Notes under the pieces: generated by a model
What the model was told of the DNA's origin: nothing
Databases searched by the model: none
The model's input: only the letters and a program-made list of their open reading frames with translations
Virus record (IMG/VR): IMGVR_UViG_3300037182_000030
Location: 1-59,678 of that record
Length of the DNA stretch: 59,678 nucleotides
DNA from: a virus
Lineage: Duplodnaviria; Caudoviricetes
Reading direction: 5' to 3' (one strand)
Translations under genes and position numbers: made by a program
Shown: piece after piece, positions 142 through 59,678 of the stretch
Layout: the number at the start of each line of letters is the position of its first letter
Position numbering within the stretch: position 1 is the first letter of the stretch

Positions 142-178
142 TTGGGATTTAGTGGAAGCCTTCACTAAAAAGTCCTAA
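26..178 (+). CDS. Cassette 2 cargo: 50-aa two-TM membrane peptide (copy A)
   Basis: MRTTIMIAAILLVGAHGVPESKVNIGTGIAIFGLFWSLAWDLVEAFTKKS; two hydrophobic stretches; stop is the TAA of TAA|C. Confidence 0.75.
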   Translation: MRTTIMIAAILLVGAHGVPESKVNIGTGIAIFGLFWSLAWDLVEAFTKKS

Positions 179-264
179 CGTGGAATCCAGCGATGAGGCG
201 ACGATGGACAACCGAAAAACAAATGCAGCGACTACGCCTCATTCGCTGCGATGACTGGTTAGGA
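173..264 (-). repeat. attC: attC site (attI-proximal, #1)
   Basis: TCCTAAC...ATCCAGCGATGAGGCG / CGCCTCATtCGCTGcGAT...GTTAGGA hairpin with two extrahelical bases. Confidence 0.9.
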
Positions 265-269
265 CTTTT

Positions 270-422: not shown

Positions 423-458
423 CATGTATTCTACGCCGCCAAAGGCTGTATAACAGGA
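417..458 (-). other. attI: Putative attI site
   Basis: Last core site (minus strand GTTAGGA) has no attC hairpin and abuts the intI start codon; a second GTTATAC lies 31 nt away (448-454), like an attI direct repeat. Confidence 0.7.
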
Positions 459-5922: not shown

Positions 5923-6075
5923 AAACATCAGTTTTAATTTACGCCGCGCTTTTCCTCCTGATAAACTTTGCAGGATCGCTCGTCTCATGGCGCAACCGGC
6001 ACGCGCCAAAAAACGACAACACAATCACACCAAGCGACCTCTGAAAGCCGCTCTCAACCAAACCTCACGCGAAAA

Positions 6076-6441
6076 ATGAACGCCACAACACCCCAAAACG
6101 GGCAAATCACAGGAAACCTGAAAACCATCGCCGAACTGCCAGATTCAACTTTGCAACTTGTCCGCGATCTTGTTGAAGGAAAAATAACCCATGACCCAGC
6201 CCGTCCAAAAATGACGCGAGTGCCGTCAGCCGAAAAACCGCCGCAGCCCGTCGAGCAAACTCCATTCGGATATTTCCACAAGCCGAACCACGACGGCAGG
6301 ACATTCAAGCACATCGTCAGCGGCGAAAAGCTCACCGTGAAATCCAGAAATGTTTATGGCCGGCTCATCGTCATTTTCGGGGACGGACATTTGGGAACGG
6401 TCGGAGACAGGGAATTGGAACTGGTTTATCTGGCCATCTGA
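6076..6441 (+). CDS. Hypothetical protein
   Basis: ORF directly upstream of the methyltransferase. Confidence 0.55.
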   Translation: MNATTPQNGQITGNLKTIAELPDSTLQLVRDLVEGKITHDPARPKMTRVPSAEKPPQPVEQTPFGYFHKPNHDGRTFKHIVSGEKLTVKSRNVYGRLIVIFGDGHLGTVGDRELELVYLAI

Positions 6442-7710: not shown

Positions 7711-7925
7711 AAACGATGAAAAGCAGCAGCCGGGCACGCGGCTCAAACCGGGGAGGATGCGGCGGCGGTTATGAAGCGACAGATCCAGATTTCGACACAA
7801 AGAAATTGGCCAAACTGAAAGCCGACTACGCCACTTGCCCGGAACAATGGCGCGCAACATTCCTTGGAGGATTGAGCCGGTTTGAAGCAAAGGTCGTCAC
7901 CGGACAGATAAACCCAGGCCAGTAA
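7707..7925 (+). CDS. Hypothetical protein
   Basis: ATGA-coupled ORF. Confidence 0.5.
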   Translation: MKTMKSSSRARGSNRGGCGGGYEATDPDFDTKKLAKLKADYATCPEQWRATFLGGLSRFEAKVVTGQINPGQ

Positions 7926-7968
7926 ACCCTTGACAAATACAGCTTGTCAGCAGCATTGTAATTCCAGA

Positions 7969-8523
7969 ATGAAGAAGAAACGCAAGCCGCCAGTCAAGCT
8001 TCCCCCGCCTGCACCGAAAGGAAACCAGCGGGCCAAAGGCAACAAGGGCGGCGGCAGAAAAAGCCTTTTCCGAAAGCACATGATCGGGCCGGCAAAGATG
8101 CTTGCAAAACTTGGAGCGACAAACGCAGAAATGGCAGAAGCATTTGGGGTTACATCAAACGCAGTCAGGGGATGGCGTGAAAACAATCCTGTGTTTTCTG
8201 CCACCATAAAAGACGGAAAGGACGAATCAGATAACAGGGTTGTGGAATCTCTTTTCAAACGCGCCACCGGCTACAGTCATCCAGACGTTCACATTTCAAC
8301 TTACGAGGGGAAACCAATCGTCACCAAAATCACGAAGCACTATCCACCGGACGCGACAAGCTGCATTTTCTGGTTGAAGAATCGCCGTTCAAACGAATGG
8401 AAGGACCGGAGCGAAAACATTCTCCAAAATCCAGACGGGACGGCGCTTGAGCCAATCACTGTCAAAGTCATCGGCGGCACAATCCCAAAAGCGAAAACTT
8501 CCAATGAAGAAAGCCAAGCCTGA
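7969..8523 (+). CDS. terS: Terminase small subunit
   Basis: APKGNQRA.GN.GGGR, HTH (GAT..E.A..FGV), V.ESLFKRATGY, HYPPD..S.IFWLKNR; lies upstream of TerL. Confidence 0.85.
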   Translation: MKKKRKPPVKLPPPAPKGNQRAKGNKGGGRKSLFRKHMIGPAKMLAKLGATNAEMAEAFGVTSNAVRGWRENNPVFSATIKDGKDESDNRVVESLFKRATGYSHPDVHISTYEGKPIVTKITKHYPPDATSCIFWLKNRRSNEWKDRSENILQNPDGTALEPITVKVIGGTIPKAKTSNEESQA

Positions 8524-9928
8524 AAAGAGCAAGCTCATGGCGGGGATTGAATACGAGTTGCGCGGCGGAAATGGAGAGCTTTTCAATTCGACAGAACAAG
8601 AAGTGATGCTGGCCGGCGGCGCGGAAACCGGGAAAACAGTGGCGGCAATTCTGAAGGCACACAAAAACTGCGGCAGCATTCCGGGCGTCCAAGGCGCGAT
8701 TGTCAGAAAGACGCAAAGCTCATTGGTTGGTTCGGTCGTAAAAAGCTATCTGCGAATAATCGAGCCAAACAAACGCGGAATAAAAATCTACGGCGGCGCA
8801 AAACCAGAACGATTCATTTACCCAAACGGTTCGGTGATTTGGATGGGTGGAATGGACAACCCAAACAAAGTGCTTTCGAGTGAGCGCGATTTCATATATT
8901 GCAACCAGGCAGAGGAGTTGACGCTGGATGATTGGGAAACACTTTTAACCCGCGCGACTGGACGAGGGGCGGTTGTGGAGCACGCGCAGATTTTCGGGGA
9001 CTGCAATCCGGGCGGTTCAATGCACTGGATTCGGAAAAGGGCTTCACTGCGTCTATTGAAGGCGATTCACAAAGACAATCCGAGCCTGTTCACAATCAAC
9101 GGCGAGATAACACCGCAAGGAAAACGCAGCCTTGCCGCTTTGAATAATCTGACTGGCATCCGGCGGAAAAGATTGCTTGAAGGAATTTGGGCAACGGCGG
9201 AAGGCGCGGTCTATGACATGTTTGATTCTTCAATTCATGTTTGCGTTCGTGACTGGCGCGAAATGAAGCGATGGTTTCTGGCGATGGATGAAGGCTACAC
9301 AAATCCTGCTGCGATTCTGTTAATCGGAGAGGACGGCGACGGAAGGCATCACGCATTCAGGGAATTTTACAAACGCGGAGTTTTGCAAGCCGATGTAGTG
9401 GCATTTGCAAAACGATGGTTCACGGACGTTATCGGAGCAGCGCTTGGAGAATACGAATTAAACGAAGGCAAAACGCGCGGCGAATGGATTCAAGGCGTGT
9501 CGCCAGTTGGAGCGAAAAGGGCGGACGCCGCCGCGTGCGATGAAGCCGCCGCCGGGCTGATAGCCGATTTGAATAACGCGGGGATCACAGCCTACCCAGC
9601 AAAGGGACGGGTGCTGGACGGAATAAATCGCGTTCAAAACCGACTCAAAAAAAGAGGCGACGGAAAGGCAAGGTTGACGATTGACCCGGCTTGCACAGAA
9701 TTCATAAACGAACTGGAATCATACGTCTGGAAACCGGAAAAGGATGTTCCCGAAAAGGAGAACGACCATTTGTGCGATGCCTACCGATATTTACTCGACT
9801 ACCTGAACGAGCCGACCGGCGCATTTGAATCAGCATCGGACATCCTCACCGGCAAAACAGGGGACATCGAAACCCCGGAGGCAATCCAGACGGATGAGGT
9901 TGAATTTGGTGACATGGAAATAAATTGA
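8504..9928 (+). CDS. terL: Terminase large subunit
   Basis: GGAETGKT Walker A, NQAEE Walker B, DCNPG, MDEGYTNP nuclease, NDHLCDAYRY. Confidence 0.93.
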   Translation: MKKAKPEKSKLMAGIEYELRGGNGELFNSTEQEVMLAGGAETGKTVAAILKAHKNCGSIPGVQGAIVRKTQSSLVGSVVKSYLRIIEPNKRGIKIYGGAKPERFIYPNGSVIWMGGMDNPNKVLSSERDFIYCNQAEELTLDDWETLLTRATGRGAVVEHAQIFGDCNPGGSMHWIRKRASLRLLKAIHKDNPSLFTINGEITPQGKRSLAALNNLTGIRRKRLLEGIWATAEGAVYDMFDSSIHVCVRDWREMKRWFLAMDEGYTNPAAILLIGEDGDGRHHAFREFYKRGVLQADVVAFAKRWFTDVIGAALGEYELNEGKTRGEWIQGVSPVGAKRADAAACDEAAAGLIADLNNAGITAYPAKGRVLDGINRVQNRLKKRGDGKARLTIDPACTEFINELESYVWKPEKDVPEKENDHLCDAYRYLLDYLNEPTGAFESASDILTGKTGDIETPEAIQTDEVEFGDMEIN

Positions 9929-9974
9929 AGATGGCTGTTGACAGTCTCACGCCATTCTGTGATATTCATAACGC

Positions 9975-10238
9975 ATGAGCGCAAAACCAATTCCAACGAT
10001 GACATGCCCGAAGTGTAACGGTCATGGCGTGCTGCCGCTGACGGTTGAACTTCACAACACTTTTCTGATTGTCGAAAAGTTGAAAGAGGCATCGGCGGCG
10101 CAGATTCAGGCCAAGCTCGACACCGCTGGAAACTTCCACGTCACGGCTTTCAACAATCGGCTGGAATTCCTTTACAAACTCGGACTTCTGAAACGCGAAA
10201 AGAAAAGCCGCCAATGGATTTACTCGCTCGCAAAATAA
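9975..10238 (+). CDS. Zn-ribbon plus winged-helix DNA-binding protein
   Basis: CPKCNGHG; NNRLEFL..LGLL.R...RQWIY; TTGACA at 9938. Confidence 0.55.
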   Translation: MSAKPIPTMTCPKCNGHGVLPLTVELHNTFLIVEKLKEASAAQIQAKLDTAGNFHVTAFNNRLEFLYKLGLLKREKKSRQWIYSLAK

Positions 10239-20687: not shown

Positions 20688-20869
20688 AAACCACGGCACG
20701 CATCATTGAACGGGTGAACTGCCCTGCGTGCGATTTTCCGTTAAGCGTCGAAAGACACCACGCCCGGCCAATTTGCTTTTGCATCACGCAAGGCTGCTCG
20801 CAGTTCGGAGTGAAATTTTACGCGCCAGTGACCGAGATAAAACTTGAGCCGGTGGAAAAGAAGCCATGA
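20684..20869 (+). CDS. Small zinc-finger protein
   Basis: CPAC...C....C. Confidence 0.5.
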   Translation: MKTTARIIERVNCPACDFPLSVERHHARPICFCITQGCSQFGVKFYAPVTEIKLEPVEKKP

Positions 20870-23364
20870 CACTTTTGGATTCAAATGAGATTTTGGAAGC
20901 CAGCGAACAGGCTGGACATCCGTTTCATGGGAATCAGTGGACAGTAAATCGGATGGTCGGAGAAGAAATGCAGACGCACACATTTTCAAAAGGAGAAAAG
21001 GTTGCGGTGTCATTCAACGGGAAACATTATCCGGGCAAGGTTGTTGGAATCAGTCACGCGATACGAAAAGCGACCATTGAATTTCCAAAGCCCGGCGGAA
21101 CCTACCGAGCGCAGCACGATTTCGGGACTATTTACAAACACACCGAACCGGAAAGCGCACCAAAGGATGAAACAAAAAACCGTGCGGCCCTCGACAAGAT
21201 AATTGACCGCGTGAACAAAAAAAATGAACCGGAAGGCGGATGGTCTGACAACGACAAAGTGCCGGTTGAATTTCAAAGCTATCAAAGCAAAGCCAGCGAC
21301 ACGCGGCGGGAAAGCCTGGCCAATCGTCTTGGTGAAATCATTTCAGCAGTCCACGTCAAAACCTACACGGAGATCAGGAACGGAAAATCGGTGACAGTCC
21401 GCGAGCACGAGGACAAGCGCACGAAACAGGACAAGCCGCAAGCCGCGCCAAAGCCTTTGAGCATGGAAGAAATCAAAGACAAGGTGAAGTCGGCAATCGA
21501 AACCGCAAAGGAAAAGGTCGGCGGCGCGCTTCAAAAGCCAGTCGTGCAAACGGAAGAGGAAGATCGAGACGCCGCAATAAAATCAATCAAGGACAAAGAA
21601 TTTCCGATTACTGATTCACAATGGTTTGACCGTGCTCGCGTGAAACTTTCCCGATCTGCCCAATCCAAAAGCCTCTACGCGCAAATTCAACTCGACCCAA
21701 AAAGCTATGAGGCGGCGAAGGGGTTGGAAAAGAAAGGCTCCTACGGATTTGAAAAAGTGCGCGCCGAAGACGCCGCCGAATTTGACGAGAATAAAGCCCT
21801 GCCAGATTTCGCTTATGATGATGCGGTGATAGTGGACATTCGCATAAGCGACCATCCCGCAACCGAATCAGCAAAGAGCGAGCCAGATATTGATATTCGG
21901 ATTGGAAGCGAAAGACTTCAGCGCAAAGATGGCCGACCTGATGCACCGGATTATCGCTTTCCAACATGGCAAGCGGCGATGGATGCCTGCGTGGACATTG
22001 CAAGAAAATTCAATGGCGACGTTAAATCACCAGCCGAAAAACCAAAGCTGCAAACCGACACTCCCGAATTCAAAGCCTGGTTCGGAGATAGCAAGGTGGT
22101 GGACAAGGACGGGAAGCCGCTGGTGATGTATCACGGCACAACGAAGGATTTTACCGAGTTCAAAAACTATGAGGAGTATGGCGGCGGACACGGCGAAATC
22201 CATTTCTTCACCACGAACAAGGATTACGCAAATGTTTATGCCGAGGACAAGGGGAGCAAAGAGGGCGGCAACATCATTCCGGTTTATCTGCGCTCTGAAA
22301 AACTATTCGACACAACCAACCCGGCGCACATGGCATTGGTAAAAAAATCATTCAGGGCTGATGGCATGGAGCCGTGGGAACAAAAGGCTTACATCGAAGA
22401 TTATTTTCACAAGGGATTGCCGCTTTGGGATAACGGAGACATGATTCGCATGGCGCAGAAAAACGGATTTGACGGAATCAAAATGGTTGAACGAAAAAGC
22501 GGAATTGAATCCATCGGCGTGTTTTCACCAAACCAGATTAAATCTGCAATTGGAAACAAGGGCACCTGGAGCCGAACGGATAACAACATCACCGCCACCG
22601 ATCATTCCGTTGACATCACCGAAATGATTCAAGCCATCCGGCGCGAGCGTCTTTCCCGCCGAATCACCGAAATAGTGAAGTGTGCGAATTCTGAGACGAC
22701 CCCCTTCACACCCGCACAAACAAAGGCCAAAAACGCGCAGGCTCGCCAACTTTCAGAAGCCATTTACGAGGCGGCGGCAATCGCAGCAGCACACAAAATC
22801 GAGGCGGACAAAAAGGAAAAGCGAAAAAAGGAAATCGCCGCCATCCTTTTGCTCCTGCTTTTGGCCGGGGAAGATGCCTACCTGAAAATATATTCCACGC
22901 TCGGCACGGACGGATTGAAAAACGCGGACGAAACCCAAATCGGCGAACAGGCCAAAACCTTCGCGGCTAGCCGTCAGGAAAACTTGCAAGAATTCGCCGG
23001 CAAACTCCGCGATGCCATCGGAGAAGCAAAAGCCGAAGCCTTTGGAATGCCGGAAGCCGACGCCGCGCGCCACGTCCGGGAAGCCGCCGTAAAAACTTCA
23101 CAGGTGATGATTGACGTTGAAACCACTTGCACACTCGGCAGCATCGAGATTGACCGGCTGAAGCGCGCTGGCTTTCGCACGGTGATCTGGGACCAATACG
23201 ACCGCCCGACAAAACGCCACTCACACGCTGAAAACATGGAGCTTGGAGTTGTGCCGCTAGGAACCATGTTCCCTTCGGGGCAGCAATATCCGGGCGACCC
23301 GCGCGCTGGCGTCGGAGAAACTATAAATTGTTTGTGTGTCCTTCGAGGAGTTGACCGCGAATGA
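20866..23364 (+). CDS. MuF-like head morphogenesis protein with inserted ADP-ribosyltransferase-like domain
   Basis: C-terminal W....D...R.SH......F......PGDP......INC.C; internal FKAWFGDSKVVD.DG.PLV.YHGT...FFT...YA...PVYL. Confidence 0.7.
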   Translation: MTLLDSNEILEASEQAGHPFHGNQWTVNRMVGEEMQTHTFSKGEKVAVSFNGKHYPGKVVGISHAIRKATIEFPKPGGTYRAQHDFGTIYKHTEPESAPKDETKNRAALDKIIDRVNKKNEPEGGWSDNDKVPVEFQSYQSKASDTRRESLANRLGEIISAVHVKTYTEIRNGKSVTVREHEDKRTKQDKPQAAPKPLSMEEIKDKVKSAIETAKEKVGGALQKPVVQTEEEDRDAAIKSIKDKEFPITDSQWFDRARVKLSRSAQSKSLYAQIQLDPKSYEAAKGLEKKGSYGFEKVRAEDAAEFDENKALPDFAYDDAVIVDIRISDHPATESAKSEPDIDIRIGSERLQRKDGRPDAPDYRFPTWQAAMDACVDIARKFNGDVKSPAEKPKLQTDTPEFKAWFGDSKVVDKDGKPLVMYHGTTKDFTEFKNYEEYGGGHGEIHFFTTNKDYANVYAEDKGSKEGGNIIPVYLRSEKLFDTTNPAHMALVKKSFRADGMEPWEQKAYIEDYFHKGLPLWDNGDMIRMAQKNGFDGIKMVERKSGIESIGVFSPNQIKSAIGNKGTWSRTDNNITATDHSVDITEMIQAIRRERLSRRITEIVKCANSETTPFTPAQTKAKNAQARQLSEAIYEAAAIAAAHKIEADKKEKRKKEIAAILLLLLLAGEDAYLKIYSTLGTDGLKNADETQIGEQAKTFAASRQENLQEFAGKLRDAIGEAKAEAFGMPEADAARHVREAAVKTSQVMIDVETTCTLGSIEIDRLKRAGFRTVIWDQYDRPTKRHSHAENMELGVVPLGTMFPSGQQYPGDPRAGVGETINCLCVLRGVDRE

Positions 23365-50631: not shown

Positions 50632-51146
50632 TTGCCCGCCGAAAAACACCAAGACCGCTCGCCTTATGGACTCAACTACCAGGGGCGCGTTTGACGCCTT
50701 CGCCAAAGGGACGCCAGCGAGAAAAGAATGGCGCAAGTGGATTCCGTTCCTTCACCCGGTCGAAATACTTATCGAAATTGCCAAGGCAAAAGCCGATCAA
50801 AAAAGTGTCCACTAAAAAACAAAAGTCAGACCGGCTTTACATGGCCATCGCAAAAGAGCATCGCCGGCAGCCGGGCAACGATTATTGCCGGGTTAAATTC
50901 GCGCTGACAAGACGAGTAATTCCGGCAACTCACACGCACCACATTCGAGGCCGACTGAAAACTCTGAAATTCGACACGCGATTCTTTTGCCACACGACAT
51001 TTGAAAATAATCTTTGGCCTCACAGGAATCCAAAAAAGGCGCAAGCGTTGGGATTGATCGCTGGGCCGGGAGAGTGGAACGTCGCGCCAAATGACGCGGA
51101 AACTGAACGGATCAAAAGCTGGATGATTGAAAAAGGAATCTGGTAA
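50628..51146 (+). CDS. HNH-like protein; its stop forms the distal boundary of the array
   Basis: C......AT..HH.RGR; ends TGG TAA|C. Confidence 0.55.
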   Translation: MIARRKTPRPLALWTQLPGARLTPSPKGRQREKNGASGFRSFTRSKYLSKLPRQKPIKKVSTKKQKSDRLYMAIAKEHRRQPGNDYCRVKFALTRRVIPATHTHHIRGRLKTLKFDTRFFCHTTFENNLWPHRNPKKAQALGLIAGPGEWNVAPNDAETERIKSWMIEKGIW

Positions 51147-51238
51147 CGCATAGCTCTGCCATGAACACCGCGCCAACGATGCCCGATTGCAATGAAACCG
51201 CCAACGCGGTGGTCATTGGCAGCAGCGCATGGTTAGAC
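51141..51238 (-). repeat. attC: attC #16 (distal)
   Basis: TAAC-GCTCTGCCATGA / TCATtGGCAGcAGC-GTTAGAC. Confidence 0.85.
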
Positions 51239-51988
51239 GCCATTGTGTGTGATGACAATGTGAAAGTCCTCTCCGGCCTGCCTGATGCGTGTATAGACCT
51301 GACGGTAACAAGCCCACCGTATGACGACATCTTCGCGTATGGTGGTCACTCGTGGGACTTCAACGCGCTCGCGGCGCAACTCGCCCGCGTGACAAAGCCG
51401 GGCGGCGTGGTGGTGTGGATAATCGGCGACCAGACAAAGAACGGCGCGGAAACGCTGACGAGCTTCCGGCAAGCTCTCGCCTTCGACGCGCTCGGACTGC
51501 GGATGCACGACACGATGATCTACGAGAAATCCGGCGTGGCATACCCTGACAGCAACCGATACCTGCAAGTCGTGGAATGGATGTTCGTCATGTCGAAGGG
51601 AAAACCGAAAACCGCGAACCTGCTGCGTGACCGGCCAAATAAATACGTCGGCACGATGGGCGGCAACGGACGCGGCGGACTGTGCAAGCGAAATGAGAAC
51701 GGCATCCGCTTCAACATCTGGCGATACCCGACTGGCCGCGACAACTCGACAAAAGACCGCGTGGCATACGAGCATCCGTGCGTGATGCCGGAAGCTCTCG
51801 CCCGCGACCATATCCTGACGTGGAGCAAGGAAGGTGAAACCGTGCTGGACTGCTTCGCTGGCAGCGGCACGACTCTGAAAATGGCACGGGAAACCAACCG
51901 CCGATACCTCGGCATCGAAGTGAATCAAACCTATGTGGACATCATCAACAAACGCCTCGAAAACCATGCGCTCCCGCTTGGCGTCTAA
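51161..51988 (+). CDS. Cassette cargo: DNA N4/N6 methyltransferase
   Basis: VTSPPY; HPCVMP; VLDCFAGSGTT; start codon inside attC. Confidence 0.92.
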   Translation: MNTAPTMPDCNETANAVVIGSSAWLDAIVCDDNVKVLSGLPDACIDLTVTSPPYDDIFAYGGHSWDFNALAAQLARVTKPGGVVVWIIGDQTKNGAETLTSFRQALAFDALGLRMHDTMIYEKSGVAYPDSNRYLQVVEWMFVMSKGKPKTANLLRDRPNKYVGTMGGNGRGGLCKRNENGIRFNIWRYPTGRDNSTKDRVAYEHPCVMPEALARDHILTWSKEGETVLDCFAGSGTTLKMARETNRRYLGIEVNQTYVDIINKRLENHALPLGV

Positions 51989-52072
51989 CATTGAGTCCAG
52001 CCATGCCGGGGCTGTGACTCCCAAATGAAACTGAAGCGGCCAACCGGCATTGGCTGCGACGATTTGTTGGGC
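51983..52072 (-). repeat. attC: attC #15
   Basis: GTCTAAC-GTCCAGCCATGCCGG / CCGGCATtGGCTGcGAC-GTTGGGC. Confidence 0.88.
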
Positions 52073-52103
52073 AGGCCGGTCTGAAAATAAGTGAAAATAA
52101 ATC

Positions 52104-52132
52104 TTGCTATCCGAACCGCTTGGGTTTAATCT
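52104..52132 (+). promoter_or_regulatory. Cassette-internal promoter
   Basis: TTGCTA-17-TAATCT, ATG 7 nt downstream. Confidence 0.55.
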
Positions 52133-52139
52133 CTCTTCA

Positions 52140-52388
52140 ATGAAAACATACTATGCCACCGCAAAAGACTGCAAAGAATTTGATACCGCAATCGCGAGCC
52201 TCCGGCCACTCGCAATCTCAATAGCGGAGACGCGCCGGTTGCTCGTAATGGCTGGGGTCGGAACATTCGGCACGGAAAAAGAACGCCAGATGCTTGCGAA
52301 ATTTGAGGATAAAATCACCAAACTCCAAACGAAGCTCTATAAACGCGCTCAAAAGGCTTGGTATCATTCCGCAGGAACCGTCCAATGA
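52140..52388 (+). CDS. Cassette cargo: hypothetical protein
   Basis: MKTYYATAK... Confidence 0.6.
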   Translation: MKTYYATAKDCKEFDTAIASLRPLAISIAETRRLLVMAGVGTFGTEKERQMLAKFEDKITKLQTKLYKRAQKAWYHSAGTVQ

Positions 52389-52528
52389 ATAAGGCCGCTC
52401 AATCTCTCGGACGCCTCGGCGGTCTAGCGAAGTCGAAAGCCAAGACTGCCGCTGCGCGTCGTAACGCAAAACTCGGTGGACGCCCGAAGAAAACCAAACG
52501 CTCGGCCCGGCGGCCTAACGCCGCGTGA
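52385..52528 (+). CDS. Cassette cargo: small basic GGRP peptide
   Basis: MNKAAQSLGRLGGLAKSKAKTAAARRNAKLGGRPKK...; not in the ORF track. Confidence 0.7.
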   Translation: MNKAAQSLGRLGGLAKSKAKTAAARRNAKLGGRPKKTKRSARRPNAA

Positions 52529-52620
52529 TGAGCCACGCGAGAATTTTATGAAACCAAAAACACTGAAAAAGACCAATCGCAAACCCGTAACCCGCGTTGG
52601 CTCCGGCACGCTTGTTAGCC
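52513..52620 (-). repeat. attC: attC #14
   Basis: GCCTAAC-GAGCCACGCG / CGCGTtGGCTC-GTTAGCC. Confidence 0.8.
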
Positions 52621-52856
52621 GACGGGTGAGGCTTGAATTTATGGTAGTGCCAGAACTACTCGCTACCAAAGCGTATGTCCCGACCCCGGTGCGCTGCAAA
52701 ATAATAGACCCGGAAGCAATCTTTCTGACGGGCATCTTGGGTGACAGTGGCCGCAAACTGGTAAAAGCTGGAATTGAGTTCTACTTTACGAAGCGTCTTG
52801 CTAACAAGTTAATCTCAAAGCGAATTGCCGTGAAGTCGGCTAACGAAAAAAGCTGA
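52548..52856 (+). CDS. Cassette cargo: hypothetical protein
   Basis: Start inside attC #14, stop inside attC #13. Confidence 0.6.
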   Translation: MKPKTLKKTNRKPVTRVGSGTLVSRRVRLEFMVVPELLATKAYVPTPVRCKIIDPEAIFLTGILGDSGRKLVKAGIEFYFTKRLANKLISKRIAVKSANEKS

Positions 52857-52963
52857 GCCACGGCGACGGGAAACAATCTCCGACTGCAAATGAAACAACC
52901 AAATAACCAAATAGCGCCGAAACTGACGGGGCAGTCGCCGTTGGCTCCGGCGCGTTGTTATGG
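52838..52963 (-). repeat. attC: attC #13
   Basis: GGCTAAC-GCTGAGCCACGGCGAC / GTCGCCGTtGGCTCcGGC-GTTATGG. Confidence 0.88.
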
Positions 52964-53499
52964 CTCAAATTATGAATAAACTGACTCAAAAAATTCGGTC
53001 TGCTTACGAGCAAATTAAGAAGCGGCCATTCGACCGCCTTCCGCTTCACGGCGTTGGGGCGGAAATTGGCGTCTATCGCGGCATCCACGCCCGTAAATTT
53101 CTCAACCGCATTGCCGTCCAAAAGCTCTACGTCGTTGATCCGTGGATAAACTACACGCAAATGTTTGATCTGCCGCAAGCGGAGCGCATCTGTCACTTTC
53201 TGCTGGACGGGTTTGAGGATAGGTGTGTTTTCTGCAAAGCCACGGCGCAGACGGCCAATCTCCCGCAACTGGACTTCGCCTACATAGACGCGTTGCACAC
53301 TGATGAGGGCGTAACTGCCGACATGGAAACAATCTGGCCGCTGATAAAGCCCGGCGGAATCATGGGCGGTCACGACTTTGACACGAACTGGCCGGGAGTG
53401 GTGCAAGGCGTCATCCGATTCGTGGCGAAAAACAACCTGACGCTTAACGTCCAGTCGCCGGATTGGTGGGTGGTCAAAAGCCATAACGACCCGAACTGA
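52960..53499 (+). CDS. Cassette cargo: class I SAM-dependent methyltransferase (Methyltransf_24-like)
   Basis: GAEIGVYRG, VDPW, DFAYIDA.H, IKPGG.M.GHDF. Confidence 0.85.
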   Translation: MAQIMNKLTQKIRSAYEQIKKRPFDRLPLHGVGAEIGVYRGIHARKFLNRIAVQKLYVVDPWINYTQMFDLPQAERICHFLLDGFEDRCVFCKATAQTANLPQLDFAYIDALHTDEGVTADMETIWPLIKPGGIMGGHDFDTNWPGVVQGVIRFVAKNNLTLNVQSPDWWVVKSHNDPN

Positions 53500-53591
53500 G
53501 ACACCGCCGATGTGCGGTGTCCGAACTCTAAAAAATCTTATGGCAAAAAAGAAAGCGTCAACGGCGGTTGTCTCCAGTGAGATGGTTCGGC
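53481..53591 (-). repeat. attC: attC #12
   Basis: CCATAAC-ACTGAGACACCGCCG / CGGCGGTtGTCTCcAGT-GTTCGGC. Confidence 0.88.
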
Positions 53592-53908
53592 AGCCGGATA
53601 ACCTGTATCTCCAATGGCACGGGGATGCTGAACCGACCGACTCACCAATCAGCGTGATGGATGTCACATGGTCACGAGATAAAATCTGGCCGTATGACAT
53701 CGAATATGCCCGCGTCCCAAACGATGCCTTCATCGCCCCACTGATGAGGTGGCTGGTGCAACGGGAAGGAAAATGCGCGGCGACAACCATGAGCATCCTT
53801 AAACGCAAGCTCGACCGCTACATCGAAACCGCCAATCACGAAGAATGGCGCAAGCTGCCGAACGTCCTGCGTGAGCCAAGCGGGACTGACGGCTCACGAT
53901 TGAAATGA
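53540..53908 (+). CDS. Cassette cargo: hypothetical protein
   Basis: P...YLQW......VTW..D.I...DIEY.R phage-type motif. Confidence 0.65.
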   Translation: MAKKKASTAVVSSEMVRQPDNLYLQWHGDAEPTDSPISVMDVTWSRDKIWPYDIEYARVPNDAFIAPLMRWLVQREGKCAATTMSILKRKLDRYIETANHEEWRKLPNVLREPSGTDGSRLK

Positions 53909-53946
53909 CAGCGACAACCCGCTTTGGCTCCACGCAGTTGTTGGGC
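53857..53946 (-). repeat. attC: attC #11
   Basis: GCCGAAC-CGTGAGCCAAGCGGG / CCCGCTTtGGCTCcACG-GTTGGGC. Confidence 0.88.
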
Positions 53947-54402
53947 AGGCCGGCTGAAAATATACAAATGAAAATACATCTGATAATCGAAATCGAGGAC
54001 GACGGAAAGACGCGCCGCGCCACCGTGCAGCGCGTGGCGAAAGTCGCGGAACTCAACGGCGACCGTGAACTGCTCATCGCGCCAGCCGCCGCGCTCGAAA
54101 TCATCAAGAAACAGAAGCGTGCAAAAATCGCGGATGTCGCGCCCGCGCCAGTGCCGCCGCTACCTGAACCGGACGCGCCGAAAATCGAGCGCAAAGGCTC
54201 CGGCCCGCAATTCGATCCCGGCTTTCTGAAAATCATCGAGGATGCGCCCGAACCGTTCACGCGCCGGAGTCTCGCGGTGAGTAGCGGCTTGAAAGTCGAG
54301 GACGTGACACAACGGCTAATCCGGCTGCACAAGAAAGGCTGGATACACCAGCCCGCCCGCGAAATGTGGGTGAGAACCAAAACCTTTGGAGAAAAGCCGT
54401 GA
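53905..54402 (+). CDS. Cassette cargo: protein with C-terminal winged helix
   Basis: PFT...LA...GL....V...L.RL.KKGWI. Confidence 0.6.
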   Translation: MTATTRFGSTQLLGRPAENIQMKIHLIIEIEDDGKTRRATVQRVAKVAELNGDRELLIAPAAALEIIKKQKRAKIADVAPAPVPPLPEPDAPKIERKGSGPQFDPGFLKIIEDAPEPFTRRSLAVSSGLKVEDVTQRLIRLHKKGWIHQPAREMWVRTKTFGEKP

Positions 54403-54680
54403 GCAACTTCGACAAGCAATATGCGCGGCAAGGTGGCCGGTGCTTCTGGTGCCAACATCTTGTGCCAGTCGCGGCCATGACCCGCGACCATATCGAGCCA
54501 AAAACCCACGGCGGCGCAAACGACTGGTCAAACATCGTGCTGGCCTGCGCCAAGTGCAACGAAGCCAAGTCCGCGCTCCATGTCGGCAGCATCCGGTTCG
54601 ACAAGAGGCTGCGGAAAGTAATGCGCGGAGAAATCTATCGCTTCATCCGCCGGGAAACATTCAAACACAACGCGACATGA
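54399..54680 (+). CDS. Cassette cargo: HNH endonuclease
   Basis: Q.GRCFWC......T.DHI.P...GG.N...NIVLAC..CN..K. Confidence 0.85.
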   Translation: MSNFDKQYARQGGRCFWCQHLVPVAAMTRDHIEPKTHGGANDWSNIVLACAKCNEAKSALHVGSIRFDKRLRKVMRGEIYRFIRRETFKHNAT

Positions 54681-54687
54681 ACCGGCT

Positions 54688-54816
54688 GCCCAACGACTGA
54701 CTTCAGACACCGCCGACAATATGCAAACCAACTCTGAACCAACTGCGATGCCCGCCGAAGCCAACAACTCCCGAACCGCCAGCGATGAGGCGGTTGTCTG
54801 CAAGGAATTGTTGGGC
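54688..54816 (-). repeat. attC: attC #10
   Basis: GCCCAAC-CTTCAGACACCGCC / GGCGGTtGTCTGcAAG-GTTGGGC. Confidence 0.88.
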
Positions 54817-55077
54817 TGCGGTGGTAAGACTGCCATCAAACCATACAAGGAACTAAAACCGTGTCCTTTCTGTTTCGGTGCGGCCTGCCTCCATCGTCGG
54901 CGGTCGGTGAACAATGCCGTAGGCCACGCGAAAACCGGGTGGGTGTATCACGTCCACTGCACCGACTGCGGCGCTCATTTTCACGAGGACGGAAACGAAG
55001 GAAGTGCTGTCTCGCGCTGGAACTCACGAGAGCAGCCCAACGGTCGGGATCAGAGGCCCGGCGACCAAAACGCATGA
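54721..55077 (+). CDS. Cassette cargo: Lar-family restriction alleviation-like protein
   Basis: ELKPCPFC.G....V.C..CGA......A...WN.R. Confidence 0.75.
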   Translation: MQTNSEPTAMPAEANNSRTASDEAVVCKELLGCGGKTAIKPYKELKPCPFCFGAACLHRRRSVNNAVGHAKTGWVYHVHCTDCGAHFHEDGNEGSAVSRWNSREQPNGRDQRPGDQNA

Positions 55078-55125
55078 ATACGAATGAGACGCAATCGCCG
55101 GGTTCTCTGCATCCCGTGGTTCGGC
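55035..55125 (-). repeat. attC: attC #9
   Basis: GCCCAAC-GATCAGAGGCCCGGCGA / TCGCCGGGTtCTCTGcATC-GTTCGGC. Confidence 0.88.
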
Positions 55126-55418
55126 ATCCCTCGTTCGATGCTGATGGATACCCAACCGAGGAAACCGAACTGGCAATCAAGGCGTGGGACTTTCGAGACG
55201 CGCCCGGCTGGCTGGCATACATCCGCGAGGCGTGGAATCACCACTATGGTAGAATGTGGGAAGACAACGGAACGATCAAGATGGCGACTGGCGGATGGAG
55301 TGGCAACGAATCAATCACGCACTCCATGCGAGAGAACTACATCCTATGGTCGCTGCTTTGGGAATCGTCGCATCGGGGCGGCCTCGAAGTGCTCAGGATG
55401 CCGAACATTTCAAGCTGA
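55074..55418 (+). CDS. Cassette cargo: conserved phage hypothetical
   Basis: D.DGYPTEE....I..W...TGGWSGNE.I......W...W.SS.RGG. Confidence 0.7.
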   Translation: MNTNETQSPGSLHPVVRHPSFDADGYPTEETELAIKAWDFRDAPGWLAYIREAWNHHYGRMWEDNGTIKMATGGWSGNESITHSMRENYILWSLLWESSHRGGLEVLRMPNISS

Positions 55419-55509
55419 GCCACAGGCGCGAACTGAATAAACCGTGAATCTGCAAACCGACATCCAAACGACAGCAGCCCCGCCTGTTGGCTCCGGCGCT
55501 GTGTTAGGC
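55400..55509 (-). repeat. attC: attC #8
   Basis: GCCGAAC-GCTGAGCCACAGGCG / CGCCTGTtGGCTCcGGC-GTTAGGC. Confidence 0.88.
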
Positions 55510-55998
55510 GGCAAGTGTCCGGTGTGTGGCGGGCCGAACCCCAAGCGGCATGGGTCTTTTGAGAAAACTTGTTCTTTAAGTTGCGGCCATAAATTGAGAT
55601 TCCAAACCGACCCCAAAGTAAAAAAGCTTCTGCTAAAATACAGATATGTCTGCCTCGGATGGCACGGAAAAGGAAAAGGCGCGAGGGATAATCCCGACCA
55701 CGCAAACGCCAAAGCCATCCGAGTTCGTGATCCGCTTGGTGTGGTGCATGAAATCAAAAACATAACGTCTTGGTGCCGAAAAAATGAACAACTATTCAAG
55801 CCATACGATAACCCGGAGGCAAAGCTTCCGCTCTGGCGACGCGCACAAGTAGGTCTGACAAGTATTGCTTGCGGAGACAAGTGCTCGTGGCATGGCTGGA
55901 CTGCTGTTTGCGTTTTCGACATAGAAGCTGACCCACTGGCAAGGCGCGTGGCTTTGCCGCCTAACGTGGCGCTAAAACACGGCGGCGATCACCAATGA
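55444..55998 (+). CDS. Cassette cargo: Zn-ribbon plus putative DNA-binding domain protein
   Basis: CPVCG...TCS..C; DP.G....I.N...WCR.N...GW. Confidence 0.6.
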   Translation: MNLQTDIQTTAAPPVGSGAVLGGKCPVCGGPNPKRHGSFEKTCSLSCGHKLRFQTDPKVKKLLLKYRYVCLGWHGKGKGARDNPDHANAKAIRVRDPLGVVHEIKNITSWCRKNEQLFKPYDNPEAKLPLWRRAQVGLTSIACGDKCSWHGWTAVCVFDIEADPLARRVALPPNVALKHGGDHQ

Positions 55999-56066
55999 CT
56001 TTCGACTGCAAATCGAATCTGGAAACTGCGGGGACTCCCGCCGTTGTTTTCAGCAACTGGTTAGGG
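55959..56066 (-). repeat. attC: attC #7
   Basis: GCCTAAC-GCTAAAACACGGCGG / CCGCCGTtGTTTTcAGC-GTTAGGG. Confidence 0.88.
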
Positions 56067-56077
56067 AGCGTCAAACT

Positions 56078-56353
56078 ATGAGCTGGTCACTAAACCTGAT
56101 AGGAAAAAAAGAGGATGTCCAAGCCTGCGTGAAAGCGCAAATCGTGGACACAAAATACGCGCCTGAAATCGGCATGGCAATCATTGCTGAAATCTCGGCG
56201 ATACCAGGGCCAACTGGTGTGCCTGATGGACACTGGAGCGCAACGCACGTCATTGTGCGAGGCAGCGGCCACACTGGCGGCGGCGTGAACGAACTGAAAA
56301 TCGAACCGTTCACGGAATGCAAAACACCTGTGGTAGCACCGCCTGTAACCTGA
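56078..56353 (+). CDS. Cassette cargo: hypothetical protein
   Basis: MSWSLNLIGKK...; coupled to attC-encoded peptide 55995-56081. Confidence 0.65.
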   Translation: MSWSLNLIGKKEDVQACVKAQIVDTKYAPEIGMAIIAEISAIPGPTGVPDGHWSATHVIVRGSGHTGGGVNELKIEPFTECKTPVVAPPVT

Positions 56354-56387
56354 ACCGACGGGGAGCTTGAGCGTCGAAACTCAAGCT

Positions 56388-56497
56388 CCCTAACGATGAA
56401 AGCTGAGCCACCGCTGACTATGGACACACAACAACCAACGACTCCTGCGGCAACCCGCGATGACCAACAGCGGTTGGCTCCGGCGGGTTTGTTAGGC
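56388..56497 (-). repeat. attC: attC #6
   Basis: CCCTAAC-GCTGAGCCACCGCTG / CAGCGGTtGGCTCcGGC-GTTAGGC. Confidence 0.88.
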
Positions 56498-56713
56498 CAC
56501 GTCCGAAAACATGGACTCCAAATAGAATGGTGCCGAGACATCCCGGAAGGCGCGCGAAAACTGGCGGTGAACAGAACTCGTGAAATGCTGATCCACTACG
56601 GGCGCAACATCACCAGCCTGAACATCGAAACCCTAGTGCTGTCTTGCTACCTGCAAGGCATCAATGACTGCTTTGAATACCATGAACATAAATCTAAAAC
56701 TGTGGGCAATTAA
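56420..56713 (+). CDS. Cassette cargo: hypothetical protein
   Basis: Start inside attC #6; L..SCYLQG..D. Confidence 0.6.
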   Translation: MDTQQPTTPAATRDDQQRLAPAGLLGHVRKHGLQIEWCRDIPEGARKLAVNRTREMLIHYGRNITSLNIETLVLSCYLQGINDCFEYHEHKSKTVGN

Positions 56714-56813
56714 AATGATCTTCGTGTGGCGCTGGCGTTGCGGATACTGGGACTGGGACGCATTCCGCGCCGCTTGGAACGTCAAGTGGCCTAACGGCCC
56801 GGATCAGCGATGA
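56682..56813 (+). CDS. Cassette cargo: 43-aa Trp-rich peptide
   Basis: MNINLKLWAIKMIFVWRWRCGYWDWDAFRAAWNVKWPNGPDQR; TGA overlaps ATG 56810. Confidence 0.45.
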   Translation: MNINLKLWAIKMIFVWRWRCGYWDWDAFRAAWNVKWPNGPDQR

Positions 56814-56882
56814 GCGCCACCCAAGACATTCAAATTGAAACCGACGTGCGTGGCGCTCATTCGCTGCATCCGGTGGTTGGGG
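56789..56882 (-). repeat. attC: attC #5
   Basis: GCCTAAC-GATCAGCGATGAGCGCCAC / GTGGCGCTCATtCGCTGcATC-GTTGGGG. Confidence 0.9.
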
Positions 56883-57679
56883 CGCATTTCGAGGACTCAC
56901 AAACTAGAATCATAAACGCCGACTGCCTGAACACGCTCGAAGAAATGGAAGATGGAAGCTGCCATGCTGTAATCACTGACCCGCCGTTCTCGTCTGGTGC
57001 GCGAACCGACGCCGGAAAGAATATGCGCGGCGGGATGCAACGCGGCGCGAAGTGGCAAGAGAACTGGTTCAGTCACGACAACCTCGCCACTCACGGCTTC
57101 AACTATCTGATGCGCCTGGTGGCTGTGGAACTCTACCGTGTGACAACGCCAACCGCGACCGCCCACTTCTTCATAGACTGGCGGATGTATCCGAACCTCT
57201 ACGCCGTGGTGGAGTCGGCGGGATGGATCGCAAAGAATCTCGTGGTGTGGGACAAGAAACACTTCGGGATGGGCGGCAACTACCGCAACCAGCACGAGCT
57301 AATCCTCTACTGCGAAAAGACGGCTGGCGCTGACTTCCGGCAAAAGAACCTCGGCAACGTGATAAGCAGCAAGCGGGCTGAAATGCTGCACCATCCGACA
57401 GAGAAGCCGACCGACATCCTCGGTCTGATGATTCGGGCGGTGACTGACGAGGGGCAAACCGTGCTCGACCCATTCATGGGCAGCGGGTCAACGCTTCGCG
57501 CCGCCAAAGACAACAATCGGAAATCAATCGGCATCGAGATATGCCGAGAATACTGCGAAGTGGCCGCAGCACGGATGGCTCAAACCGTCCTGCCACTGGA
57601 CGCGCCCGCAATGCGCCCCAACGCAGAGTTCAGGAACGCCGCATCTGGCGTTCCCGGACTCGATGGAGGCGTCCAATAG
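56810..57679 (+). CDS. Cassette cargo: DNA N4/N6 methyltransferase
   Basis: ITDPPF; HPTEKP; VLDPFMGSGST. Confidence 0.92.
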   Translation: MSATQDIQIETDVRGAHSLHPVVGAHFEDSQTRIINADCLNTLEEMEDGSCHAVITDPPFSSGARTDAGKNMRGGMQRGAKWQENWFSHDNLATHGFNYLMRLVAVELYRVTTPTATAHFFIDWRMYPNLYAVVESAGWIAKNLVVWDKKHFGMGGNYRNQHELILYCEKTAGADFRQKNLGNVISSKRAEMLHHPTEKPTDILGLMIRAVTDEGQTVLDPFMGSGSTLRAAKDNNRKSIGIEICREYCEVAAARMAQTVLPLDAPAMRPNAEFRNAASGVPGLDGGVQ

Positions 57680-57705
57680 GCGTTTCCTGCAACGATTTGT
57701 TGGGC
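57616..57705 (-). repeat. attC: attC #4
   Basis: CCCCAAC-GTTCAGGAACGCC / GGCGTTtCCTGcAAC-GTTGGGC. Confidence 0.88.
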
Positions 57706-57736
57706 AGGCCGGTCTGAAAATAAATGAAAATAGTTC

Positions 57737-57765
57737 TTGCAACCAAAGCGGCTTGGGTTTATTGT
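57737..57765 (+). promoter_or_regulatory. Cassette-internal promoter
   Basis: TTGCAA-17-TATTGT, ATG 6 nt downstream. Confidence 0.55.
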
Positions 57766-57771
57766 GTGGGT

Positions 57772-57978
57772 ATGAAAACGAACGAAATCAAATCGGTGTC
57801 AGCGGCGCACGGCAAAATGAACATCGTTCACGCGGCGGGCGCGACGGTGGAAGGCTGCACGGCGGCATACTACGCGCTCTGCGGCGACACGCGGGCAATC
57901 CGGCGGTCAATGCGCGGATTTCTTGAAGTGTATGTCCCGGTGAACTGCCCGTCATGCCTTGCCAAGCTCGCAAAATGA
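57772..57978 (+). CDS. Cassette cargo: small Zn-binding protein
   Basis: VH......ALCG......VNCPSC. Confidence 0.6.
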   Translation: MKTNEIKSVSAAHGKMNIVHAAGATVEGCTAAYYALCGDTRAIRRSMRGFLEVYVPVNCPSCLAKLAK

Positions 57979-58289
57979 AAACTGAATGGAAATGGCTACT
58001 CGACTGGATAGCACAAAACGGCAGCGCCGACTGCTTGAACACGCCGCTCGCGCTCGACGCCTGCGAGCGGTTCGGATGGCGCTGCATCAGAACTGGCCTG
58101 CATACGGTGTCAACGCCTCGCGTCGGACGGGAACTGGCGAAGATGGCAAGGGCTGGCTACCTCGAAAAGAGCCGCGCCGGAATCTCCGGACTCGGCTACG
58201 GGTGGCCGAAATGGGTGTGGACATACAGCCTGACAAGTATGGCTGCCCAAATTGCAACGGAGACGGTTGCGAACTCTGCCGCTAAATGA
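57975..58289 (+). CDS. Cassette cargo: winged-helix-like protein
   Basis: GR.L..M...GYL...R.G......GWPKWV..Y.L. Confidence 0.6.
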   Translation: MKTEWKWLLDWIAQNGSADCLNTPLALDACERFGWRCIRTGLHTVSTPRVGRELAKMARAGYLEKSRAGISGLGYGWPKWVWTYSLTSMAAQIATETVANSAAK

Positions 58290-58465
58290 ACATCACAAAA
58301 TATCTGTCTGAAATCGGGCGCAAAGGCGGTAAAGCCAAGAGCCGCGCCAAACTCGCCGCTGCGCGTGCAAATGGGAAACTTGGTGGACGCCCGAAGAAAC
58401 CTAAACGCGCCGCCCGTCTGCCCAACACTAAAGTGAGCAGCGTGATCGTGAGCAACCGTGAATAA
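58286..58465 (+). CDS. Cassette cargo: small basic GGRP peptide
   Basis: MNITKYLSEIGRKGGKAKSRAKLAAARANGKLGGRPKK...; paralog of 52385-52528. Confidence 0.7.
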   Translation: MNITKYLSEIGRKGGKAKSRAKLAAARANGKLGGRPKKPKRAARLPNTKVSSVIVSNRE

Positions 58466-58541
58466 CTCGACAACCATTCTAACCACTGAAACCGTGCCAA
58501 CTGGCGGGAGCAATCACGTCTGCTCCACTGCCTTGTTAGAG
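58420..58541 (-). repeat. attC: attC #3
   Basis: GCCCAAC-AGTGAGCAGCGTGAT / ATCACGtCTGCTCcACT-GTTAGAG. Confidence 0.88.
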
Positions 58542-59276
58542 CACAGGATCGTGGCGCTCTCTGGTGGAAAAGACTCAACCGCTCTCGCTCTCCGGCTCGC
58601 GGAAGTAGAACCGCAAGCGTATCAATTCTGCATCACGCCGACAGGCCGCGAACTGCCGGAAATGCTCGACCACTGGAAAAAGCTGGAATGTCTGCTTGGC
58701 GCTCCGCTGGTGCGAATCCCAGGCCCGTCGCTGCTCGACCTCATCATCAAATACAAGACGCTGCCAAACTTCCGGCTGCGCTACTGCACGCGGGAAGTGA
58801 AAATCGAGCCATTCATCAAATACGCGGAGAGCCTCGCGCCTGCAATCTGCTACGTCGGCATCCGTGCCGATGAAGCCGATGACCGCGAAGGAACGAACTG
58901 GAATGGCATCGAAGGCGTGAAACAAGACCTGCCGCTGGTGCGCTGGGGATGGGGCGTGAACCGCGTAAAAGAATATCTGCGCGAACGCGGCGTGACGATA
59001 CCGGAACGGACGGACTGCGACTGCTGCTATCACCAGCAACTCGGCGAATGGTGGCGGCTGTGGCGCGACCACATAGACCGCTGGATGGAAATCGAAGCTC
59101 TCGAAATCTGGACTGGTCACACGCTCCGCAGTGAACAGCGCGACTCGTGGCCGGCGAGCCTGAAAGAACTCCGCGCAAAATTTGAAGCTGGCTACATCCC
59201 GAAAGGGGCAGCGCAAATGAAAATCCCGCTCGACGTAGCCGAGCGGAAAACAATGTGCGCTTGGTGCGCTCGATAA
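58458..59276 (+). CDS. Cassette cargo: PAPS-reductase-family (PP-loop) protein
   Basis: VALSGGKDSTAL; TG.E.PE; R.CT...KI.P; VGIRADE..R; PL..WG; R..C..C. Confidence 0.85.
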   Translation: MNNSTTILTTETVPTGGSNHVCSTALLEHRIVALSGGKDSTALALRLAEVEPQAYQFCITPTGRELPEMLDHWKKLECLLGAPLVRIPGPSLLDLIIKYKTLPNFRLRYCTREVKIEPFIKYAESLAPAICYVGIRADEADDREGTNWNGIEGVKQDLPLVRWGWGVNRVKEYLRERGVTIPERTDCDCCYHQQLGEWWRLWRDHIDRWMEIEALEIWTGHTLRSEQRDSWPASLKELRAKFEAGYIPKGAAQMKIPLDVAERKTMCAWCAR

Positions 59277-59277
59277 T

Positions 59278-59547
59278 ATGCCATACGAAACCCTACACCC
59301 CGGAAAGAAATGTCCCGAATGCGGCGGCAGGGGAAAAATCTACCGTCACGTTCCGAAATACGCGATAGCCATGCCCGGCGTGGCTGACGACTGGACATAC
59401 GAAGATCAAGAATGCTGGCGCTGTCATGGTGACGGCATCGCGCGTTCGCTGGACGCACGGCTGTGCTCTAACGTAGAAGTCAGCGATGGCGCGTCGCTGA
59501 CCAACCGAAAAACAAACGCAGCGTCCTCGCGCCATTCGCTGCACTGA
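59278..59547 (+). CDS. Cassette cargo: DnaJ-type zinc-finger peptide
   Basis: CPECGGRG...CWRCHGDG; reads through attC #2. Confidence 0.6.
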   Translation: MPYETLHPGKKCPECGGRGKIYRHVPKYAIAMPGVADDWTYEDQECWRCHGDGIARSLDARLCSNVEVSDGASLTNRKTNAASSRHSLH

Positions 59548-59557
59548 CGGGTTAGGA
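59466..59557 (-). repeat. attC: attC #2
   Basis: CTCTAAC-AGTCAGCGATGGCGCG / CGCGCCATtCGCTGcACT-GTTAGGA. Confidence 0.9.
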
Positions 59558-59678
59558 CTTTTATGAGAACAACAATAATGATAGCTGCAATCCTTTTGGT
59601 CGGCGCTCATGGAGTGCCGGAAAGCAAAGTAAATATCGGAACTGGAATAGCCAGATTCGGACTGTTGTGGTCACTGGC

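Follow-up and report, generated by a model that had tools for sequence, protein, structure and literature searches.

A probable phage integron with cassette genes on the recombined strand and a shared reading frame at its crossovers

The IMG/VR virus record IMGVR_UViG_3300037182_000030 is the 59,678-base genome record of a peat-soil phage, and its full length is referred to here as the window. Our analysis indicated that the window likely carries a complete phage integron, composed of an IntI-like tyrosine recombinase, an attI site and at least 17 cassettes bounded by attC sites, whose genes lie on the recombined bottom strand and follow a convention of reading the crossover AAC as asparagine (the Asn frame). 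Integrons are the textbook gene-shuffling device, and by their rule a gene precedes its attC and is expressed from a promoter in the platform.

The recombinase, the attC sites and the direction of the cassettes

The open reading frame (ORF) at 459–1412 had the integron integrase family TIGR02249 as its top NCBIfam match (229.9 bits versus a cut-off of 265), aligned in one stretch from residues 6 to 301 over profile positions 4–297 of 315, and its Pfam Phage_integrase match spread 180 residues over 142 profile positions, which fits an insert. Its clade comprises 69 metagenomic proteins at ≥45% identity, many of them from contigs of 30–77 kb. Named integron integrases are the next relatives, at ≤38% identity, and no integrase among 50,697 deposited phage records exceeds 35% identity to the window recombinase. 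Searching viral contigs with the single integrase sequence gave no match, a profile search of viral contigs recovered six integrase loci, and a search of genome contigs returned no relatives, a result limited by the search pattern and hence no proof of absence.

Initial scans for boxes and arm energy were too strict or too loose, and a filtered scan and covariance models were used instead. The attC covariance model started from six window sites and was rebuilt from 33 (model R2). In the window, R2 recognized 16 attC sites, all on the + strand, at 51141–59559 and 171–266, and none in the remaining 50 kb. In seven related loci (six of the close clade plus a duplicate, L009), every attC lies upstream of intI and on the integrase strand. 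The sites carry the RYYYAAC and GTTRRRY boxes, the extrahelical bases and the 6-bp stem by which attC is defined, with C at position 16 versus the usual G. Covariation in the hairpin was pronounced, with 85% of cells paired versus 59% in shuffles (a level reached in 0 of 500 shuffles) and ≤39% with the partner slid, and with double-sided changes in 213 cells versus 76 in shuffles, figures that are flattered by an alignment fitted to the model.

To place the genes relative to the recombined strand, the sites were compared with the description given in the available part of Nivina 2016 (PMC5027507), in which the recombined bottom strand runs from 5′-RYYYAAC, cut between A and C, to GTTRRRY-3′, and the GTTRRRY arm carries extrahelical bases at position 16 and, as a conserved T, at 23/24, the two being separated by a 6-bp stem. 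Of 34 sites counted from the GTTRRRY end of the + strand, 33 have T at position 23 and 28 have C at position 16, and single-base bulges are more numerous on the GTTRRRY arm (82) than on the opposite arm (31). The conserved T, position 16 and the bulged arm all match the bottom-strand description, and therefore the coding strand corresponds to the bottom strand. All Pfam and NCBIfam matches of the cargo fall on the + strand, and a codon model called 20 genes on + and 1 on − in the window, and 22 and 1, respectively, in the related locus L002. A class 1 integron control gave only noise with the earlier covariance model R1; its geometry was then read from the annotation of the record, where the cassette gene lies on the strand opposite to intI1. 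The comparison of the + coding strand with this control therefore indicates that flipped genes are combined with a platform of classical layout. The cargo does not occupy the classical position (top strand, upstream of attC and read from the platform promoter Pc, which was not searched for); it lies on the bottom-like strand, 3′ of its own attC and facing intI.

The array adjoins attI and the 5′ end of intI. In all eight loci of the attI comparison, the variable end of the last cassette, N6AAC, gives way directly to a conserved TCTTATT-type sequence, 20–55 nt before the intI ATG. Furthermore, the six bases 3′ of GTT in site n complement the six bases 5′ of AAC in site n+1: when the two end boxes of one cassette were compared, 31 of 34 pairs were perfect (mean 5.88 of 6, attI junctions included), whereas the boxes within one hairpin matched on average in 2.78 of 6. 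The cassettes are evidently discrete units whose ends once formed one box, and, as the GTT+6 box pairs with the 6+AAC box at the opposite end, the order within a cassette is attC and then ORF. Duplicated and paralogous cassettes have the upstream attC in common, with homology stopping at AAC, as in the paralogous stretches 52439–52519 and 58346–58426. At the level of sequence, the bottom-strand features, the attI junction and the cassette-end complementarity demonstrated that the crossover lies at AA/C (the slash marking the point of exchange), at the 3′ end of the gene. A reading of the same DNA made beforehand from the letters alone (the sequence-only reading) had assumed that the AAC box is the crossover, which is untrue of ordinary integrons but holds here. 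Putative traces of recombination include the end-box complementarity, the tandem cassette copies and the differing neighbours found in other metagenomes.

A scan of viral contigs with the attI motif gave 20 stretches, two of them already known; the other 18 had no attC and were rejected as chance matches. In the window, three unrelated cassettes (51993–52128, 53915–53975 and 57626–57761) share a 3′ attC half, the box GTTGGGCAG and a leader of 30–56 nt with promoter-like hexamers. In the cassette behind 51983, the end boxes agree in just 4 of 6 positions, which suggests that the shared module was gained by a route other than the integrase.

Table 1. Coordinates of the recombinase, attI and attC sites in the window, with the AAC position and adjoining gene of each attC
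Feature	Coordinates	Strand	AAC and adjoining gene	Evidence
intI-like tyrosine recombinase, 317 aa	459..1412	+		TIGR02249, Pfam Phage_integrase and SAM_4 matches
attI, conserved stretch	423..458	+	from last cassette end (AA/C at 422/423) to intI start	conservation in 8/8 loci
attC 1	51141..51240	+	AAC 51145; upstream gene stops at TAA/C	R2 (52.9 bits), frame table
attC 2	51981..52074	+	AAC 51987, then shared leader; methylase 51161–51988 stops at TAA/C	R2, frame table, NCBIfam/Pfam match
attC 3	52511..52622	+	AAC 52517; ORF 52385–52528 crosses in Asn frame	R2, frame table
attC 4	52837..52965	+	AAC 52842; ORF 52548–52856 crosses in Asn frame	R2, frame table
attC 5	53478..53593	+	AAC 53485; Methyltransf_24 gene 52960–53499 crosses in Asn frame	R2, frame table
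attC 6	53855..53948	+	AAC 53861; ORF 53540–53908 crosses, ATGA 53905	R2, frame table
attC 7	54686..54818	+	AAC 54692; HNH gene stops at 54680, ahead of box	R2, frame table
attC 8	55033..55127	+	AAC 55039; Lar-like gene 54721–55077 crosses, ATGA 55074	R2, frame table
attC 9	55398..55511	+	AAC 55404; ORF 55074–55418 crosses	R2, frame table
attC 10	55957..56068	+	AAC 55963; ORF 55444–55998 crosses; mini-ORF 55995–56081 over hairpin	R2, frame table
attC 11	56386..56499	+	AAC 56392; upstream ORF stops at 56353	R2, frame table
attC 12	56787..56884	+	AAC 56793; weak ORF 56664–56813 crosses, ATGA 56810	R2, frame table
attC 13	57614..57707	+	AAC 57620, shared leader; methylase 56810–57679 crosses, 19-codon tail	R2, frame table
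attC 14	58418..58544	+	AAC 58424; small basic protein gene 58286–58465 crosses	R2, frame table
attC 15	59464..59559	+	AAC 59470; zinc-ribbon ORF 59278–59547 crosses, 25-codon tail	R2, frame table
attC 16	171..266	+	AAC 177, between two small membrane-protein cassettes; ORFs 26–178 and 270–422 stop at TAA/C	R2, frame table

Reading frames at the cassette junctions

The frame in which cargo ORFs reach the crossover was then tabulated. As the sequence-only reading had claimed, 11 window ORFs read AAC as Asn (ends 52528, 52856, 53499, 53908, 55077, 55418, 55998, 56813, 57679, 58465 and 59547), with C-termini matching those it quoted; they stop 2–25 codons past AAC, and one of them, 56664–56813 (49 aa), is a weak gene call. 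The four ORFs it described as stopping exactly at TAA/C (the TAA frame) were also found, with ends at 51146, 51988, 178 and 422, all outside the interval it had delimited, and no ORF crosses in the third frame. Two genes that it had left out stop ahead of the box, by 8 nt (the HNH gene, at 54680) and by 35 nt (the ORF 56078–56353). For the 15 of 15 window ORFs reaching the box, the chance of an empty third frame is (2/3)^15 = 0.002, and it is 0.008 for the 12 that are left after removal of one duplicate, one paralogue and the weak ORF.

The six related loci gave ~14 Asn-frame endings (two at GAC variants), eight TAA endings, one TAA-frame read-through, six stops before the box and two ambiguous cases. 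Over the window and these homologous arrays, ~25 endings use the Asn frame, 12 are TAA and one is the other read-through, and the third frame was used in 0 of ~38 cases, a distribution that is not random, with a chance of about 1e-7 (5e-7 for n = 36; (2/3)^38 being ~2e-7), and the endings hold in loci whose integrases are only ~51% identical. The frame table thus demonstrated the bias by sequence comparison across the arrays.

The sites themselves honour the same frame. Among 43 attC hits examined, three without AAC were excluded, and in all of the other 40 the Asn frame meets a stop within 32 codons, as it does at 8/8 attI, in line with the expectation of a stop in the AAC frame at each site; at attI, a TAA closes it within 3–10 codons in 8/8. 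The third frame stays open for >32 codons at 18/40 attC and continues in frame into intI in five of eight loci. The next gene in the window starts in the third frame in eight cases, in the TAA frame in five and in the Asn frame in two, both of the latter starting after the stop.

Assembled, these features give a design in which a cassette reads C, attC body, GTT+6, ORF and 6+AA. The attC precedes its own gene and often supplies the start codon and an N-terminal leader. The gene ends in one of two ways, either on a TAA of its own that forms the final three bases of the cassette, or by AA/C read as Asn followed by a stop borrowed from the downstream neighbour. By convention, attC and attI close the Asn frame fast, and downstream genes and intI start in other frames, such that any cassette order would yield a short variable tail and no fusion protein, with the ribosome ending in or just before the next start. 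We infer that this convention is kept by selection, which would disfavour fusions and favour passing the ribosome on through the hairpin.

The interpretation proposed from the sequence alone was partly borne out, with support for the AAC crossover, for the stop at every site and for the changing tails; translational coupling as the reason for keeping the frame is conjectural. The Asn-frame stop precedes or overlaps the next start at 16/16 window sites (four ATGA overlaps, one GTG overlap, seven within 8–26 nt and four farther), and the ATGA overlaps named at 53905, 55074, 55995 and 56810 are present, although the overlap at 55995 is the start of a 28-codon mini-ORF and not of a cargo gene. However, ATGA is not enriched, and avoidance of fusion to the next gene or intI accounts for the frame pattern equally well. 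Translational coupling is thus plausible but unproven. Published work favours the idea: in the available part of Carvalho 2024 (PMC11511950), translation up to attC is reported to raise downstream expression, and ORF-11 of attI1, described below, overlaps the crossover with a stop taken from the first cassette. The mini-ORF (55995–56081) begins at the ATGA in which the upstream tail terminates, crosses the attC hairpin and ends in the ATGA of ORF 56078–56353; it looks like a ribosome relay bridging one distant stop–start pair.

Two further observations concern these junctions. A second open frame of 104 codons (54386–54700) spans the HNH gene and ends in ...LPND in the Asn frame of the next attC; it may be chance or an overlapping reading, and the HNH frame with Pfam support is the one that stops ahead of the box. 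Between the stop of ORF 56078–56353 and its attC lies a G+C-rich stem-loop (56361–56394), whose 3′ half is the terminal 6+AAC box of the cassette.

Variable tails and competing explanations

As methylases are the only cargo common to the window and the related loci, the comparison of one cassette in different contexts relied on protein homologues and metagenome contigs. The prediction that the C-termini of one gene change with context was upheld by the comparison: homologues of the methylase 56810–57679 (97% and 88% identity) are alike up to ...PN and then carry different short tails, and ordinary methylase homologues of ~240–245 aa have neither tail nor leader. Metagenome contigs turn from alike to unlike, or the reverse, right at AAC at 54692, 55039, 56793 and 57622/3 (short contigs, 88% likeness). 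These alignments demonstrated the variable tails in the compared sequences. The joints 51256>56969, 55509>56023 and 55984>56039 were discarded as artefacts of repeats or paralogues, as were array stretches left uncovered in search runs X3–X5.

Several observations weigh against the integron with flipped, frame-sharing genes proposed above. The same methylase core occurs with differing attC-encoded N-terminal leaders, a point that the sequence-only reading had missed, and contigs also begin or end at the GTT box (56874–56881 and 54816). The attC body and the ORF are thus not always one travelling unit, unlike in a strict cassette model. The varying leaders and the GTT-box breaks therefore indicate that attC bodies are sometimes re-paired with genes, a process that may run through top-strand events, gene conversion or cassette genesis. 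The locus sample is eight, and the TIGR02249 match of the recombinase scores under its cut-off. In L002, an ORF at 8974 crosses in the TAA frame (CAA), and genes in the relatives were called from ORF length and with a window-trained codon model, with two ambiguous junctions and six stops before the box. ATGA occurs at four of 13 TGA stops, no more than base composition predicts, and the support for IntI cutting at AA/C comes from sequence comparison.

Against this background, the frame bias could be a by-product, left by a founder effect, by gene conversion of attC modules dragging the last codons along, or by avoidance of the rare codons CTA, CGA and ATA in the third frame. Module exchange does occur, with attC halves and leaders common to unrelated cassettes (51983, 53857 and 57616), and both the cassette whose end boxes match in 4 of 6 and the unenriched ATGA fit such an origin. 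However, the cargo families are unrelated, the same two endings recur where integrases are ~51% identical, and without selection one would hardly expect the Asn frame to be closed at every attC and attI scored while the third frame runs on into the next gene or intI. A by-product is therefore judged unlikely.

We consider it very improbable that the cassettes have ordinary polarity, that is, that the attC belongs to the upstream gene, the crossover is at G/TT of the downstream box, and the tail and stop travel with the gene. A gene with RYYYAAC behind it, and in many cases TAA within that box, does have the look of a classical cassette, a stop overlapping attC is the majority case in the part of Carvalho 2024 (PMC11511950) available, and the context-dependent leaders and the contigs breaking at the GTT box count in its favour. 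Yet the extra bases would then be on the wrong arm, the last cassette by intI is followed after AAC by a conserved attI and no attC in 8/8 loci, duplicated cassettes share the upstream and not the downstream attC, and the tails of near-identical methylases differ. The notion that the C-terminal Pro-Asn and tail form a protein-level signal, such as a tag or degron, draws on the 7 of 11 endings in PN but is considered extremely unlikely, given that the motif is a DNA box of which all six bases pair with the opposite cassette end, the tails differ in length (2–25 codons) and sequence, and homologues outside cassettes (~240–245 aa) have no tail.

Known systems, the phage genome and significance

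The proposed phage integron resembles classical integrons (class 1 and the chromosomal integrons of Vibrio) in its IntI-like recombinase, its attI at the 5′ end of intI, its folded attC with AAC and GTT boxes, the conserved T at 23, the 6-bp stem, the second bulge at 16, the complementary cassette end boxes and the varying array content. It differs from them in that the cargo genes lie on the recombined strand and point toward intI, with attC before the gene, starts in the attC loop and ends on the crossover, and also in the C at position 16 in place of G, the recombinase under the NCBIfam cut-off and the phage host.

Co-directional genes are also found in the reverse integrons of the Treponema type and in Virus Rctr41k (KX853513), where, as in the window, all genes including intI lie on one strand. 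Model R2 gave no match in Rctr41k, and its array was found by a script for cassette-end signatures, which traced a chain at 5680–9975; there and in the phage record L006 (10982–12028), the array lies 3′ of intI on the same strand, and the integrases are ~30% identical. In these two, intI is inverted and the cassettes have the usual polarity, whereas the window has a classical platform and flipped genes, so that their layout is a different way to co-directional genes. A distant second integrase clade (31% identity), in the viral contigs L003 (109–2427) and L005 (87–403), has the same flipped layout as the window, and its cargo ORFs end at TAA/C in 4/4 sites.

The available text of PMC8876359 describes ORF-11 of attI1, which overlaps the crossover, takes an in-phase stop from the core site of the first cassette and is thought to hand ribosomes on, and reports a proposal that short ORFs inside attC pass ribosomes likewise. 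ORF-11 is, on that account, one 11-codon platform ORF at attI, whereas the window cargo genes cross at cassette–cassette junctions, with every site honouring the frame. Phage-borne integrons and attC clusters are already published: the part of Qi 2023 (PMC9892861) available describes attC sites and cassettes carried by phages, the cargo including DNA methylases. The phage clusters described there are mostly integrase-less or fragments of bacterial integrons with typical polarity, whereas the window has a dedicated IntI clade, an attI and ~17 cassettes. The literature search found no description of flipped cassettes or of a frame standard; the Qi 2023 supplement, which lists phage cassette contexts and may bear on polarity, lay outside it.

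The record is classed as linear, with a CheckV estimate of 69%, and its + strand carries genes for a terminase-like protein, a Mu-type portal and a large ART-PolyVal protein. The final 141 bases of the window equal the first 141 at 98.6%, and contigs of search run X2 extend past the window end and carry tandem copies of the terminal cassette; therefore the genome is probably circular or circularly permuted, with the record broken inside a repeat. At least three tandem copies (89–99% alike) of a cassette for a 50-aa small membrane protein lie beside attI (window 1–425 and 59468–59678); the start and end of the record both fall within them, and an X2 contig contains a tandem junction. The array cargo includes anti-restriction genes, namely three methylases, a Lar-like protein, an HNH nuclease and a PAPS-reductase-like protein.

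Outside the array, a third N6/N4 DNA methylase with a long insert is encoded at 6442–7710 and an 832-aa protein with an ART-PolyVal ADP-ribosyltransferase domain at 20866–23364. An A-rich 24-nt repeat ending in ATGA or ATGAA stands at gene starts at 2245, 10250, 42673, 43028, 44081, 49060 and 49621, and is probably a common translation-start or promoter element of the phage.

A wider and more tentative interpretation, possible but somewhat short of an even chance in our judgement, is that a phage-integron lineage maintains a frame standard at its sites, by which genes left open at their 3′ ends plug into any attC or attI, which closes that one frame and has the next gene in another. The attC bodies would then encode exchangeable N-terminal leaders, and the Asn and Val/GTT edges would act like exon borders at the DNA level, shuffling counter-defence genes without breaking translation. 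The lineage joins classical recombination geometry to flipped genes, in a phage and with anti-restriction cargo; its attC sites are translatable at both ends, and a mobile cassette population is able to share a frame convention. The questions of how promoter-distant cassettes are expressed, how fusions are avoided after reshuffling and how attC becomes attached to genes are thereby made testable.

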